Part shown: piece after piece, positions 94 to 8,810 of the stretch
Numbering within the stretch: position 1 is the first letter of the stretch
How the letters are laid out: every line of letters starts with the position of its first letter
The notes under the pieces: generated by a model
What the model was told of the DNA's origin: nothing
Databases searched by the model: none
The model's input: the letters and a program-made list of their open reading frames with translations, nothing else
Translations under genes and position numbers: made by a program
Origin: Deferribacterales bacterium
GTDB lineage: Bacteria; Chrysiogenota; Deferribacteres; Deferribacterales; Geovibrionaceae
Assembly: GCA_050253075.1 (NCBI GenBank)
Contig: JBFWJS010000003.1
Coordinates: 149,458-213,457 of the forward strand
Direction: 5' to 3'
DNA length: 64,000 nt

Positions 94-294
94 AAAAATA
101 GTCTCGCTTAAAATCAATAAAATATGTGTGTTAGTAAATATTACATAATTAGTCCGTTTTATGCAAGATATACTAATTTACCTAGTGAATTTTATAAGTT
201 TTTTTCAATGACATCCACCCCCATTTCTGGTATAAGAAAAGCTCCAAAAAGATTGCAAATACAAGAAACTATCAATATAAAAAAGGTGCTTTTT

Positions 295-528
295 ATGAAG
301 GTTAAAGTTTTCGTAAAGCTGAAAGACGGCGTTCTCGACCCTCAGGGTCAGACAATCCTCGGTTCCATAGGCAGAATGGGCTATGATTTTGCCACTGACG
401 TACGTGTCGGAAAATTCTTTGAAATAGAAGTAAACGACAAATCCTGCGAGAAAGAGCTGGAAAAGATTTCGGCTGATCTCCTCTCCAACCCTATTATCGA
501 AGAATATTCGATAGAGTTCGTGGATTAA
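295..528 (+). CDS. purS: phosphoribosylformylglycinamidine synthase subunit PurS
   Basis: MKVKVFVKLKDGVLDPQG...LLSNPIIEEY; start reset from 124 to the ATG at 295. Confidence 0.95.
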   Translation: MKVKVFVKLKDGVLDPQGQTILGSIGRMGYDFATDVRVGKFFEIEVNDKSCEKELEKISADLLSNPIIEEYSIEFVD

Positions 529-531
529 GAT

Positions 532-1230
532 ATGAAAGCTGGTGTTGTAGTATTTCCCGGTTCAAACTGTGACCACGACTGCTATCACGTTTTAAAGCAT
601 GTTATGGGCGTGGAAACTGTTTTCCTCTGGCATAAGGACACAGACCTTCAGGGTGTGGACCTTGTAGTATTCCCCGGCGGTTTCTCTTATGGAGATTACC
701 TCCGCAGCGGCGCAATCGCAAAATTCAGCCCCATCGTGAACGAGGTTAAAAACTTCGCCGGCAAAGGCGGACATGTGCTCGGCATATGCAACGGCTTTCA
801 GGTGCTGACAGAAGCCGGGCTCCTCCCCGGTGCTCTGATGCGTAACCGCGATCTTAAATTCATCTGCAAATACGTTAACCTTCGTGTCGATAATTCCGAC
901 ACACCGTTCTCCCGTATGTATGCATCAGGCGAAGTTGTCGGCATACCTGTGGCACATATGGACGGTAACTACTACATAGATCCAGACGGTCTGAAAAGAC
1001 TCGAGGACAACGGCCAGGTCGTCTTCCGCTATTGCGACGAGAACGGCGAGGTCATAGATTCCACTAACCTTAACGGATCGCTCAATAACATCGCAGGTAT
1101 CGTGAACGAGGCGGGCAACGTCATGGGTATGATGCCTCACCCTGAGAGATGCGCAGAGGGCATGATGGAGACCAGAGACGGATACTTCCTCTTTGAGTCC
1201 ATCCTGAAAGCTATCGGAGGTGCTGCATGA
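532..1230 (+). CDS. purQ: FGAM synthase glutaminase subunit PurQ
   Basis: [32 protein letters not shown] motifs. Confidence 0.98.
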
Positions 1231-3458
1231 GCGTATACGACAGCTTTAACTACCCGGAGGTAACATTCCCCGTAGCGAAAGAGATGGGGCTCTCCGAAGC
1301 CGAGTTTGAGAGCGTTAAAGAGCTCCTCGGCAGAACACCGAACTATATCGAACTCGGCATCATCTCATCCATGTATTCCGAGCACTGTTCATACAAGTCA
1401 AGCCGTGTGCACCTTGCCAAATTCCCTACGGAAGCTCCGTGGGTGGTACAGGGGCCGGGCGAAAACGCAGGGGTTATCTCCGTCAATGACGAAGGTCTCT
1501 GTGTATGCTTTAAGGTGGAGTCACACAACCACCCTTCATTCATTGAGCCGTTTCAGGGCGCTGCCACAGGTGTGGGCGGTATCCTCAGAGACGTGTTCAC
1601 AATGGGCGCACGCCCAGTAGCCGCTATGAACTCTCTTCGCTTCGGCAGCCTTGAGAGCGCAAAGAACAGATACATCTTCGAAGGTGTGGTGGAAGGTATT
1701 TCCCACTACGGTAACTGCTTCGGTGTACCTACTGTCGGCGGTGAAGTTTACTTTAACGACTGCTACGCAGGCAACCCGCTGGTGAATGCTTTCGCCCTCG
1801 GTGTCGTGCAGAAAGATAAGATTTTCCTCGCTAAAGCAGAAGGAAAGGGGAACCCTGTGATATACGTCGGTGCCAAGACAGGACGTGACGGTATTCACGG
1901 TGCTACTATGGCCTCTGCCGAATTTGATGAAAACAGCGAGGCAAAGAGACCAAACGTACAGATAGGCGACCCGTTCAAGGAGAAACTGCTCCTCGAGGCT
2001 TGTCTGGAGCTGATGAAGACAGACTACATCGTAGGTATTCAGGATATGGGTGCTGCGGGTCTGACCAGCTCATCATTTGAAATGGCGTCCAACTCGGGCT
2101 CAGGCGTAAGGCTTGACCTCGACAACGTGCCTATACGTGAAAAGAACATGACCCCTTACGAAATCATGCTTTCCGAGTCTCAGGAGCGTATGCTCATGGT
2201 GGCTAAGAAGGGCTATGAAGATAAGGTTAAAGAAATATTCGAAAAGTGGGACCTAGATGCATCCGTTATCGGTGAAGTTACAGACGACGGATACGTAAGG
2301 CTCACATGGGCAGGCGAAGAAGTTGCCGCACTTGAGGCTGCTCCCCTCGCTAACGAAGCTCCGAAGTATAAGCGTCCATACGCAAGACCTGCTTATCAGG
2401 ACGAACTCCAGAAGGAAGTCGAGGTTGAAGAACCTTCCGACCTTCAGGATGTTCTGGTAAAACTCCTTGCGAATCCGACCATAGCTTCCAAACGCTGGGT
2501 ATGGGAACAGTACGACCACATGGTACGTGTGGGCACAGTACAGCTCCCCGGATGTGACGCAGCGGTTATCAGGCTGAACGAAGGGGAGAACGGCGTAGCC
2601 ATCTCCAGCGACTGTAACAGCAGATACTGCTACCTCAACCCATACGAAGGCGGTAAGGCCGCCATCGCAGAATCAGCGAGAAACGTCGCTGTCAGCGGTG
2701 CGAGACCACGTGCTTTCACTAACTGTCTGAACTTTGGAAACCCTGAGAAAGAAGACATCATGTGGCAGTTCGCTACGGCTATCGACGGTATCTCCGAAGC
2801 TGCTAAAGCTCTCGAGACACCTGTTGTCAGCGGTAACGTGTCACTTTACAATGAAACAGAAGGAACACCTATCCACCCGACACCGACGATAGTAATGGTC
2901 GGCGTTATAGATGATGTGAACAAGCGCATCGGCTCTTACTTCAAAGAGTCAGGCAGCATGGTTTACCTGCTCGGCGAATGCGACGGACACATCGGCGGTT
3001 CCGAATATCTCGCATCTATCCACGGCAAAGAGCTCGGCGACGCTCCGAAGGTTGACCTCGAGCGTGAGAAGGGCATCATCGACTTTATGTGTGATGCTGC
3101 AGAGGCTGGCCTCGTAAATGCTGCCCACGACGTGTCCGAAGGCGGACTTGCCGTAGCTGTCACAGAGATGACATTCGGCTCAGACTGCATCGGCGTGGAT
3201 ATAAAGCTGGAAAACGACATCCGCAGCGACAAGCTCCTCTTTGGTGAAAACCACGGAAGGGTCGTGCTCGAAGTTTCGAACGCAGACTCGAGAGAGGTTG
3301 AAAAACTTGCGGAAAAGTATAACTTACCAATCAGCAGAATAGGCCGTACATGCGGCGACACAATAGTAATATCTGCAGGCAGAGCGAAAGTCATAAGCAT
3401 GCCTGTGAAAGATGCTGAGGCTATATGGAAGAACAGCATCGGGGAAAAAATGAAATGA
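1227..3458 (+). CDS. purL: FGAM synthase subunit PurL
   Basis: [33 protein letters not shown] motifs. Confidence 0.98.
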
Positions 3459-4822
3459 TTTTTGATAAGTTTCACGAAGAATGCGGTGTAGCGGGGGTTT
3501 ACGCTAATGAAGACGCTGCAAACCTTGTGTACCTTTCTCTCTATGCCCTTCAGCACAGAGGACAGGAAGGTGCGGGGATAGCAGTCAGCAACCGCAGTGA
3601 GATAGCTACAGAAAAAGGGATGGGGCTCGTGGCGGACATCTTCTCTCAGGAGAAGCTGGACAGGCTCACAGGCGACATCGCTATCGGGCATAACAGATAC
3701 AGCACAACCGGTATATCCGAGGTGCAGAATACTCAGCCAATTACAGTTACCATCAACGTAGGTGCGATATCTCTCGCCCACAACGGTAACATCGTGAATG
3801 CAGACGAGATAAAAGCGGAGCTGGTTAAGCAGGGTGCGATATTTAACTCTACATCAGATACAGAGGTCATCGTGCACCTCATCGCAAAGAGCAAAAAAGA
3901 CAACCTTTTCGACTCTATCGTCTATGCGCTTTCACAGCTAAAGGGTGCTTTCTCCCTTCTTATCATGACAAACGACAAGCTGATCGGCGTGCGTGACCCT
4001 ATGGGTATGCGTCCGCTCGTCCTCGGAAAGCTGAAGAGCGGATACATCCTCGCTTCTGAAAGCTGTGCACTCGACCTCATCGAAGCCACAATGGTGAGAG
4101 AGATCGAGCCGGGCGAGATGATCATCATCGACGATAACGGCATGAAGTCAGTATTCCCATTCGAAAAAACAGCACCGAAACAGTGCGTTTTTGAGCATAT
4201 ATATTTCGCCAGACCCGATTCATTCATCTTCGGCAACAGTGTTTATAACGTGCGTAAGCGCATGGGCTATAAGCTCGCCGAGGAGGACGATATCGAGGCT
4301 GATGTTGTTATCCCTGTGCCCGACTCGGGCGTGGTGGCAACACTCGGCTATGCCGAAAAGAGCGGAATACCCTTCCAGATGGGACTTATGAGAAACCATT
4401 ACGTGGGCAGAACCTTCATCGAGCCGAGCCAGTCTATCAGACACTTCGGCGTGAAGATAAAGCTGAACCCTGTTAGGGAAGTGATCGAAGGGAAGAGGGT
4501 TGTCGTGGTGGATGACTCCATCGTCAGAGGAACCACCAGCCGTAAGATAGTGAAAATGCTGAGAGAGGCGGGCGCTAAAGAAGTGCACATGCGCATAAGC
4601 AGCCCTCCGACAGCTTACCCTTGTTTCTACGGTATCGACACACCGACCAGAAAAGAACTTATCGCCTCCACACACACAATAGAGGAGACGAGAAAATACA
4701 TTACTGCGGATAGTCTAAACTATCTGAGTATCGAAGGTCTGATGGAATGTGTGCAGAGCAATAACTATTGCCAGGCATGTTTCACCGGGGAATACCCGAC
4801 CATCCATCATAACGGTGATTAA
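3455..4822 (+). CDS. purF: amidophosphoribosyltransferase (propeptide and 4Fe-4S type)
   Basis: EECG N-terminal nucleophile after short propeptide, [16 protein letters not shown]; Fe-S-type Cys in CVFE, PCFYG, YCQAC. Confidence 0.97.
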
Positions 4823-4834
4823 CAGGAGCAGCAT

Positions 4835-5194
4835 ATGGCTGATGTGATTGTTGTCAGAATGTTCGGCAGCAGCATGGAATTTGTTTCCGGCTGAAGCCCT
4901 TCATATTTCCCCTCGGGCTGTGGGGTAAAAGATGATCCTTACGAAGAGCTCTCTTATAAGACCGACGCACTCCTTACCACTGAGTTTGGTAAGGACAATG
5001 TCGACTTTAAGTATATAGATGTCTCTTCACCTGAAATACTAGATTATATCAACGATGTTACCAATATCGTTGAAGGCAGACTGCCTTTCCCTTATATCTC
5101 TTTGAACGACAAGCCTTTGTGCTGGGGGCTCATGGAGCCGCAGGAGATAATGGGCAAGATAAAAGATAAGCTCGACGGCGGGGCGGAAGCGTAA
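4835..5194 (+). CDS. candidate selenoprotein, YuzD/DUF1462-like thioredoxin fold, 119 aa, Sec at codon 20 (TGA 4892-4894)
   Basis: SD AGGAG 4824-4828, ATG 4835; frame open to TAA 5192-5194 except one TGA; MADVIVVRMFGSSMEFVSG(U)SPSYFPSGCG...FKYIDVSSPE...LPFPYISLNDKPLCWG; SECIS-like hairpin follows the TGA. Confidence 0.8.
4901..4935 (+). promoter_or_regulatory. putative bacterial SECIS hairpin
   Basis: TCAT/ATGA, TTT/AAA, CCCC/GGGG stems with apical C-GGGCT-G; first loop G is 21 nt after the UGA. Confidence 0.6.
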
Positions 5195-5276
5195 CATTGT
5201 AAGTTAGTTTTGCACATATGGCGAAATATTGTATAATGGGTAATACAGTGATTATTACTTATTATGTGGTGCTTAC

Positions 5277-6386
5277 ATGATGGATACACAATACGCTCCG
5301 GCCGAAAGAGATGCCGATGATATGATTTGGGCGCAATACGGTAAGTTTTGTGCCAGTCCCGTGCTGAACAATTTTCTAAGTAAGATTGATCAGTACATCA
5401 TCGTCCTGAATAAACGCAGACAGATCATATTTGCGAATGCTTCATTCCTTGCCGATATGGGGGTTTCCGATGTTTACGATGCTCTTGGCAAGCGTATCGG
5501 AGAGCTTCTCGACTGTCGCTTTGCCTGGTGTGTCGCAGGATGCGGAACATCTGAGTTCTGCATGGAGTGCGGTGCCGTCCGCTCTATCCTGGAGTCTCAG
5601 AACGGCATGGATAACGTCAGGGAATGCATCATTCTCACCAAAAATTCCAAAACACTCGAGCTGGGCGTATCCAGTAAAAGGATACATATCGCCGGCGAAG
5701 ATTACACGCTTTTCAGCATTACGGACCTTTCGGAAAGGAAGAATCTGAAAGCTATCGAAGACATCTTTTTCCACGATATATCGAATCTGGCTACCAGTAT
5801 GCATTCCATGATACACCTGCTGCACGATGAGCGTATCCTTGATAAGCAGAAGATACAGGCACAGCTTGTCCGCAGCTCCGAGGAACTCCTCAGCGAGCTG
5901 AATTCTCATAAACTGCTGAAATCTGCAGAGAAGAACGAGCTAGCCGTTGATATGGGCACTTACAGCTCTATCACTATTATGGAGCGTGCCATCGGGCTGG
6001 TGGAGAGGCTGCAGTCCTCCAGAGGAAACATACTGTACATCCACCACAACAGTGCAGAGTTCGATATTAAAACAGATATAAATCTCATTAACAGAGTCCT
6101 TATAAACATGCTTACCAACGCACTGGAAGCCTCATCCTTTGGGGAGAAGGTGACCATCGGCTCAGAGATACTGGGCGAGAACAAGATATTCTGGGTGCAC
6201 AACAGCTCTTACATGAGCCCTGCTATACAGGCAAAGATATTCCGCACTAATTTCAGCACGAAAAAGAGAGGGTCGGGATACGGCACAAGCAGCATAAGGC
6301 TCATAACGGAAAATTATCTGGGCGGGCGGGTGAGCTTCAGCTCGGATAAAGACAACGGAACAGTTTTCAGGATAATATTGAAATAA
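5277..6386 (+). CDS. PAS-like domain sensor histidine kinase (cytoplasmic)
   Basis: IFFHDISN H-box, NMLTNALEAS N-box, GSGYG G2-box; Cys-rich CRFAWCVAGCGTSEFCMECG in the sensor part. Confidence 0.88.
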   Translation: MMDTQYAPAERDADDMIWAQYGKFCASPVLNNFLSKIDQYIIVLNKRRQIIFANASFLADMGVSDVYDALGKRIGELLDCRFAWCVAGCGTSEFCMECGAVRSILESQNGMDNVRECIILTKNSKTLELGVSSKRIHIAGEDYTLFSITDLSERKNLKAIEDIFFHDISNLATSMHSMIHLLHDERILDKQKIQAQLVRSSEELLSELNSHKLLKSAEKNELAVDMGTYSSITIMERAIGLVERLQSSRGNILYIHHNSAEFDIKTDINLINRVLINMLTNALEASSFGEKVTIGSEILGENKIFWVHNSSYMSPAIQAKIFRTNFSTKKRGSGYGTSSIRLITENYLGGRVSFSSDKDNGTVFRIILK

Positions 6387-8582: not shown

Positions 8583-8688
8583 GGACCCGACAGGGTGACT
8601 CCGGCACACAGAGATGCCCACTACCGTTGCTTCCTTCCGGACCTGGCGGGGTTTGCGGGAAATCCGTTGCAGAGGCCCCATCGGGACC
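8583..8688 (-). ncRNA. ffs: signal recognition particle small RNA (4.5S)
   Basis: Minus strand contains CCGCCAGGTCCGGAAGGAAGCAACGG (SRP helix 8, GGAA tetraloop) within long terminal pairing; located downstream of tRNA-Ser. Confidence 0.93.
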
Positions 8689-8720: not shown

Positions 8721-8810
8721 CGGAGAAGGAGGGATTCGAACCCTCGGTACGCGATTAACGTACACACACTTTCCAGGCGTGCTCCTTAAACCTGACTCGG
8801 ACACCTCTCC
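8721..8810 (-). tRNA. tRNA-Ser(GGA)
   Basis: GGAGAGG acceptor, anticodon arm CACGC-CTGGAAA-GTGTG, long variable arm, GGTTCGAATCC; CCA not encoded. Confidence 0.96.

Follow-up and report, generated by a model that had tools for sequence, protein, structure and literature searches.

A probable selenoprotein of YuzD-like fold encoded directly behind purF in Deferribacterales

YuzD, the protein of the DUF1462 family (PF07315), is represented by S. aureus SA0798 (PDB 1XG8) and has a CxxC motif after strand 1. ArsD (PDB 3MWH, 3KGK) has a fold of the thioredoxin clan. Its thiol ligands, a vicinal Cys pair and a third Cys, sit in the long loop that follows strand 1, and it stands in the context of ars operons. 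In bacterial selenoproteins, homologues with Cys at the selenocysteine (Sec) position are usual, not obligatory. Selenoproteins of thioredoxin fold have been catalogued as Trx, Grx, SelW-like, SaoT, VPGUxxT, HUIPC, UXX-star and ArsC-like. According to sections of the catalogue, they share a UGA codon with a bacterial SECIS element (bSECIS) behind it and place Sec after strand 1 (PMC13188914).

We describe here a gene, referred to as gene X, whose product resembles each of these systems in part. Its protein has the predicted fold in common with YuzD, but carries S-G-U-x8-C in a longer loop, apparently uses Sec, is encoded next to purF and has no CxxC. None of the motifs CxxC, CxxU and UxxC occurs among the 21 orthologue rows of our alignment. 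Unlike the catalogued thioredoxin-fold selenoproteins, it shows a U-x8-C spacing, and none of 23 members scored over any curated cut-off in NCBIfam release 20.0 (best E 0.09). The predicted fold is of the thioredoxin clan, to which ArsD belongs, whereas the vicinal Cys pair and the ars context are missing and none of 23 members gave a Pfam ArsD match.

Gene X locates in the window, the whole stretch of 64,000 nucleotides from a Deferribacterales genome that was analysed (4835..5194, + strand). It comprises 119 residues and a TAA stop (5192-5194), and its ATG at 4835 follows the purF stop TAA (4820-4822) after a gap of 12 nt. The Shine-Dalgarno sequence AGGAG (4824..4828, +) lies 6 nt 5' of the ATG, and similar words precede the start in orthologues. 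Codon 20 (4892..4894, +) is the single in-frame TGA. The sequence thus bears out the first-pass annotation, which had proposed a 120-codon frame behind purF with this ribosome-binding site, this gap and a lone TGA. Gene X failed the first coding-score filter of our ORF scan and passed a relaxed one.

The motif around the TGA reads F-V-S-G-U-S-P-S-Y-F-P-S-G-C-G, with eight residues between U20 and C29. The C29 codon (4919..4921, +) lies within the 3' arm of the SECIS stem and encodes Cys in 27/27 orthologue copies (TGT in 14, TGC in 13). An SG repeat before U and C had also been proposed; it is present in the window, but the second 'SG' varies, the residue two before C29 being S in 10, A in 11 and T in 6 of the 27 copies. 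Further downstream, Pro86 (codon 5090..5092, +) forms an invariant column just 5' of a modeled strand at residues 87–90, and we infer that it takes the position of the thioredoxin cis-proline.

Upstream of gene X, we identified purS (289..528, +; NF004630, 85.7 bits, cut-off 75), purQ (532..1230, +; NF002957, over cut-off), purL (1227..3458, +; NF002290, over cut-off) and purF (3455..4822, +; TIGR01134, 572.9 bits), so that gene X comes last in the series purS-purQ-purL-purF-X. The TGA stop of purQ overlaps the purL start (ATGA), and therefore TGA is also an ordinary stop in this genome. The order purQ-purL-purF-X recurs in five other genomes that represent five families, and purS precedes it in those where it was listed. 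In all 27 copies purF ends 2–15 nt upstream of the gene X start, while the downstream neighbour varies between families. Based on this spacing, gene X is very likely co-transcribed with the pur genes as their last member. A sigma-70-like match (5209..5237, +; 10/12 consensus matches) ahead of a sensor kinase gene (5277-6386) suggests that gene X ends the pur unit, such sites being as frequent in the region as chance predicts (8 found, 7.7 expected). One assembly (G015) holds two purF-X copies (contigs C7 and C16; loci L029 and L049) with unlike downstream genes, which may reflect a duplication or a mixed bin.

Orthologues of gene X are present in 26 of 41 genomes, the source genome included. 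The 27 copies span five families of Deferribacterales at about 47–81% identity, and the gene tree groups them by family. In every copy, and in a distant paralogue (L050) found in one genome, the TGA follows S-G. When 68 genomes of the phylum were searched with the profile, one additional TGA-bearing genome emerged; a weak partial match (E 0.0096) was left out. Scanning 185,579 species genomes with two short peptide patterns, which distant relatives would escape, gave 16 gene X loci, 15 in Deferribacterales and one in an unclassified bacterium; all nine that were translated have TGA. A metagenome pattern in which the Sec and Cys codons were left free gave three matches, again with TGA in 3/3. 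A plasmid search with the gene X tail P0016 returned no match.

The codons before the TGA are conserved as protein. It had been considered that the upstream 19 codons might be unconserved. In fact, the 12 codons that precede the TGA have a pN/pS of 0.23 in the 27 copies and of 0.09 within family f1 (13 copies), the gene X core having 0.25 and 0.20, respectively. This indicates purifying selection upstream of the TGA.

The genome carrying the window (99.9% complete) encodes the complete Sec machinery sought by the first-pass annotation, each component scoring over its curated cut-off: selA (524 bits), selB (293), selD (339) and tRNA-Sec, the selC product (68.8). Its selD itself carries one in-frame TGA. 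Sec machinery is recorded as present in PMC2885270. TGA terminates 237 of 896 ORFs of at least 400 codons, so a code in which TGA means Trp was rejected and the standard code applies. Six other Sec candidates, each of a known type or context, came out of our scans of this genome: SelD, an HesB-like protein (contig C1:39261-39551), an ArsC-like protein (C1:660451-660783), two SelW-like proteins (C1:679357-679596; C4:237312-237533) and PrxU (C4:28614-29318). Four of these Sec genes were compared with NCBIfam, and all four fell into the expected families; the ArsC-like protein and PrxU exceeded the cut-off of their own Sec models, and one exceeded that of a SelW subfamily. No formate dehydrogenase match in this genome has an internal stop.

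The distribution of gene X follows that of the Sec trait. Among the 41 genomes, X occurs in 26, selA in 27 and selD in 29. A selD with TGA accompanies X in 26/26 genomes and selA in 25/26 (the exception, G035, is 87% complete), and X is absent from all 12 genomes that lack selD. Three genomes have selD and no X (G031, G020, G021), and G031 (88% complete) is also without a purF match. Genus g3, which belongs to the family of the gene X genome, has no selA, selB, selD, X or Cys form in its four genomes (99–100% complete). There, no trace of X is left behind purF, and a terminator-like hairpin directly follows purF in two genomes. Genus g3 represents one loss event, and related genomes do not count as independent in the co-occurrence of X with selD.

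The RNA element was compared across the orthologues. A hairpin CCCC-TC-GGGCT-GT-GGGG had been proposed at 4909-4925, with its first loop G (4915) 21 nt from the TGA. Its position and the first G at +21 hold, but the orthologues show that it is better read as a stem of seven pairs (one mismatch in the window) closed by a GGY triloop at +22, which is GGC (4916-4918) in the window (4909..4925, +). A GG(T/C) triloop hairpin occupies the same place in 27/27 copies, and the paralogue has a triloop hairpin there as well (28/28 loci). Part of PMC13188914 defines a bSECIS by a loop of 3–9 nt, a stem of 4–16 bp, a G in the first two loop positions and a distance of 16–37 nt from UGA; the gene X hairpin, with its triloop at +22 and its covarying seven-pair stem, fits this geometry. 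GG-led loops also stand behind the UGA in the selD, SelW-like, ArsC-like and PrxU genes of the same genome.

Pairing is retained as the sequence changes. Stem cells are paired in 93.1% of 175, compared with 88.3% in shuffles (0/500) and 39–59% in slid controls, and 14 cells changed on both sides (0/500 shuffles), results that the relatedness of the copies inflates. Double-sided change touches only two of the seven pairs, a number equalled in 233/500 shuffles. Under synonymous randomisation, the copies keep a mean of 6.6 stem pairs against 4.4 (median P 0.035 per copy; 0.055 for energy; 0.2 for the window itself). Third positions are nearly fixed inside the hairpin (A in 26/27, G in 26/27) and free just outside. 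Thr ACA goes with Cys TGT in 6/6 copies, and Ala GCA with Cys TGC in 10/11. In 10 copies the third base of the C29 codon has no partner and TGG would give better pairing, yet the Cys is retained, which speaks for selection on the residue. Since the codon is part of the SECIS stem, its first two bases are held by RNA pairing too.

Viewed in this single genome, the hairpin is within chance, and its support is comparative, not local. Of the six selenoprotein hairpins that were folded, it is the least stable (−6.5 kcal/mol), and the 60 nt starting at the TGA have another fold as their energy minimum (z 0.36). A published bound of −7.5 kcal/mol is reached by 16/27 copies in a 30-nt window, the value depending on the folded length. 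Hairpin filters gave no enrichment behind TGA versus TAA/TAG in the genome scan (9/2320, 3/1501, 6/1305) or in a second scan (27/172, 84/607, 26/208). No SECIS model of Rfam matched; the one hit was a spurious snoRNA (21.8 bits, gathering score 100).

In protein databases, gene X is nearly always truncated. Of 65 proteins, 64 match the X profile, one of them through a spurious 4617-aa match, which leaves 63 real homologues. Sixty-one of these miss the Sec column: they are tails of 58–97 aa, apart from one apparently frameshifted entry of 142 aa. RefSeq likewise holds entries with the tail only, for example WP_013011251.1 and WP_013451178.1, and some tails bear the JGI product name 'disulfide oxidoreductase YuzD'. 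The two that span the column, P0003 and P0024, have Trp there, none having Cys or Sec. Both also continue beyond the usual end across additional Trp residues, which suggests gene calls in which TGA was read as Trp.

These comparisons bear on what the homologues were expected to show at codon 20. TGA, one of the two expected states, is found in all copies, but the other, a Cys orthologue, was not found: the Cys form is absent from the 63 database homologues, the 68 genomes of the phylum and the three metagenome matches, a scope beyond which distant YuzD-like proteins lie. A residue other than Cys, which would have spoken for a nonsense codon, is absent from the DNA that we read (27/27 copies, 3/3 metagenome matches), but Trp stands in the two database proteins above.

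The family defined by gene X is absent from the catalogues checked and combines an unusual motif with no Cys orthologue found. Table 1 of the 2026 catalogue of 119 families has no YuzD, DUF1462 or U-x8-C entry (PMC13188914), a term search of PMC12013277 and four of its supplements gave no YuzD or DUF1462 match, and the passages and supplement part of PMC13326102 list Deferribacteres species and neither YuzD nor DUF1462. In the open literature, we found no paper on a selenoprotein DUF1462, a Sec YuzD or Deferribacter selenoproteins, and no relevant one on yuzD with nfu, yuzD in B. subtilis, or PurF or Fe-S with thioredoxin. Searches based on Cys/TGA pairs miss selenoproteins without a Cys orthologue, as a section of PMC12013277 notes. 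Gene X thus adds to the bacterial selenoproteome a family with features that such searches miss, and its full frame corrects the tail-only RefSeq entries.

The predicted structure agrees with the YuzD/DUF1462 thioredoxin-like fold assigned in the first reading of the locus. The model (mean pLDDT 75) contains a strand at residues 5–11, a helix at 35–51, a strand, a helix, Pro86, two strands and a final helix. U20 and C29 lie in a low-confidence loop (residues 16–32, pLDDT below 50). 1XG8 is the best match both in Foldseek (E 1.9e-4) and in VIA-align (Z 10.3, rmsd 3.6, 103 aligned), where the scores after it are Z 9.3 and 8.9 and thioredoxins come next; the profile of the gene X family also matches 1XG8 (E 5.2e-4). 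Against PF07315, 20 of the 23 aligned members give matches with E no higher than 1 (best 7.2e-6). With 16.9 bits, the protein encoded in the window stays under the gathering threshold of 25; one orthologue reaches 25.7 bits and ten more have 17.7–23.2. These matches span profile positions 20–92 only, with the N-terminal motif outside. As judged from the model, the protein is a YuzD-like relative and is not a member of the family by score or by the CxxC motif.

We regard it as almost certain from comparative genomics that the TGA of gene X is read as Sec. The invariant TGA in 27/27 copies, the full machinery, the selection upstream, the covarying hairpin and the co-occurrence with selD all argue for the Sec-containing protein proposed by the first-pass annotation. 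As for its function, we favor, by a modest degree of confidence, a Sec protein of YuzD-type fold that acts through U20 and C29 as a selenol-thiol oxidoreductase and is encoded by the last gene of the pur unit. SelB would bind the GGY-loop hairpin behind the UGA and insert Sec at residue 20. The protein would adopt the predicted YuzD-type thioredoxin fold, with U20 and C29 on a long flexible loop (residues 12–34) between strand 1 and helix 1. U20 may then attack an oxidised thiol or a small oxidant, C29 would resolve the adduct into an intramolecular U20-C29 selenenylsulfide, and the thiol system of the cell would re-reduce it. Fold and motif make this redox cycle rather probable. Against it, the model does not support proximity of U20 and C29, given the low pLDDT of the loop, and the paralogue lacks the Cys at +9. 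The U-x8-C motif, with its partner Cys written inside the SECIS stem, offers a handle on the uncharacterised YuzD fold.

Among the clients that can be named for such an oxidoreductase, the Cys-dependent enzymes of its own operon come first, PurF ahead of PurQ, but it is no less likely that X does general housekeeping and has merely inherited its position. That PurF is a dedicated client by any chemistry seems doubtful, adjacency being the whole case for it. It is a shade more doubtful still that X is a Sec-only lineage-core protein for the first purine step, which would keep PurF functional at its catalytic Cys or its [4Fe-4S] cluster, or tune it by redox. If this is true, X and a second candidate, protein Y, would count among the chief causes for the retention of the Sec machinery by Deferribacterales in the absence of a Sec formate dehydrogenase. 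X is kept far more widely in the order than the other Sec families tested, which are patchy in the 41 genomes at the thresholds used: PrxU in 9, HesB-like in 6, SelW-like in 5 and ArsC-like in 4 (3 with TGA). An FdhA match containing TGA occurs in 1/41 genomes, one that lacks X, where up to 15 candidates were scored in each genome. The wide retention of X thus bears on the upkeep of the Sec trait. Through the fixed place of X behind purF, a selenium link to de novo purine synthesis can be tested directly in species that are cultured and non-pathogenic.

Ligation of a cluster or a metal by X, in whatever form, is possible, and we hold it less probable than not. One form of it, which we judge unlikely, has X carry or repair the [4Fe-4S] cluster of PurF, with U20 and C29 in the loop ligating iron or the cluster and handing it to PurF or shielding PurF. 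Some glutaredoxin-fold proteins do ligate iron or a cluster, and in Firmicutes yuzD adjoins nfu, which can be counted in favor of this idea. PurF of the window has its nucleophile at Cys10 and further Cys at 244, 390, 439 and 442, which we take to be [4Fe-4S] ligands by B. subtilis PurF. Adjacency to purF is strict in all 27 copies, including the duplicated G015 locus, and PurF keeps its four cluster-type Cys. PurF-type enzymes with these four Cys bind [4Fe-4S], as stated in a part of PMC6006212. However, nucleophile and cluster-type Cys are invariant in 31/31 aligned PurF sequences with or without X; cluster-type PurF occurs without X in the four near-complete genomes of g3 and in families f5-f7 and f10, and the paralogue is not near purF.

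Another form, which we consider improbable, has X as an ArsD-like chaperone that would bind As(III), Hg or Cu via U20 and C29, its place at purF being an inherited accident. ArsD structures do appear among the Foldseek matches, weakly and among many thioredoxins (3mwh, E 0.023; 3kgk, E 0.026), and their absence from the best 50 VIA-align matches excludes nothing. However, X has only two invariant ligands, Cys96 being variable, against the three of ArsD; among the neighbours of the 27 copies in the ORF lists we recognised no gene for metal resistance, and X shows the conservation of a core gene and a tree in step with the families, unlike resistance genes with their patchy occurrence. That ArsD and DUF1462 both belong to the thioredoxin clan, as noted in a part of PMC3091736, is in line with the idea. 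A last reading takes the TGA not as Sec but as a true stop (in a pseudogene, or between a 19-residue peptide and a tail with its own start), as an error of sequencing or as Trp under a changed code. It would account for the database tails, the two Trp proteins and the weak local hairpin, but is highly improbable: error and decay are excluded by a TGA common to 27/27 copies, strand 1 of the fold is encoded by the upstream codons, which are under selection, the code is standard, both Trp proteins overrun the usual end (suggestive only) and X tracks selD.

We also note several features of PurF. An extra Cys, Cys432 (window ~4748-4750), stands seven residues before the C-terminal CxxC; it was tried as a mark of X-bearing genomes and rejected, as it occurs in 26/26 genomes with X and also in 3/5 without. 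In genus g3 (L076, L077, L104, L108), PurF ends in N-P-K-S-G-C in 4/4 genomes, and its relatives end in N-P-K-S-E-V, N-P-K-F-E-E and similar, with one E-N-K-C. We speculate that the S-G-C tail is a tethered thiol replacing X; it is one evolutionary event and maybe chance.

The paralogue L050 (L050:1468-1818, −; genome G004, contig C2) shares 29% identity with X. It carries C-T-S-G-U (C-x3-U), lacks the Cys at +9 and has its own triloop hairpin. It adjoins a methyltransferase-like gene, away from purF. Its database form consists of the tails P0036 and P0038 only; a homologue search found only its own truncated entry, and a search against PDB sequences gave only spurious troponin matches.

Protein Y is a second uncatalogued selenoprotein candidate of about 50 aa, with an N-terminal hydrophobic helix (membrane anchor), the motif G-U-x4..6-C-S-[IV]-E-D-R-Y-K and a Lys-rich tail. 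Its loci include G000:C2:563059-563202 (+) in the gene X genome, L110:16381-16536 (+) and L229-L240. The hairpin GT(A/G)TCGA-GGA-TCGATAC, with a GGA triloop, is nearly frozen in 13/13 loci read. Protein Y gave no NCBIfam match and no Pfam match over cut-off, and it has no purF link. It occurs with TGA in 27/41 genomes, the 26 with X and G031; common descent together with a single loss of Sec suffices to account for the near-identical distribution of the two genes.

In genome G038, X was tried as the only selenoprotein besides SelD and this was rejected: protein Y and an HMA-like protein also turned up in a scan of the chromosome and of 139 kb of the second contig (309 kb). The HMA-like protein (85 aa; L141:4752-5006, −) carries U-M-G-C, a UxxC motif, and its matches to NF041115 and PF00403 are weak and under the cut-offs. 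In the window itself, a small SRP RNA and a tRNA gene are found at 8585-8683 (−) and 8721-8810 (−).
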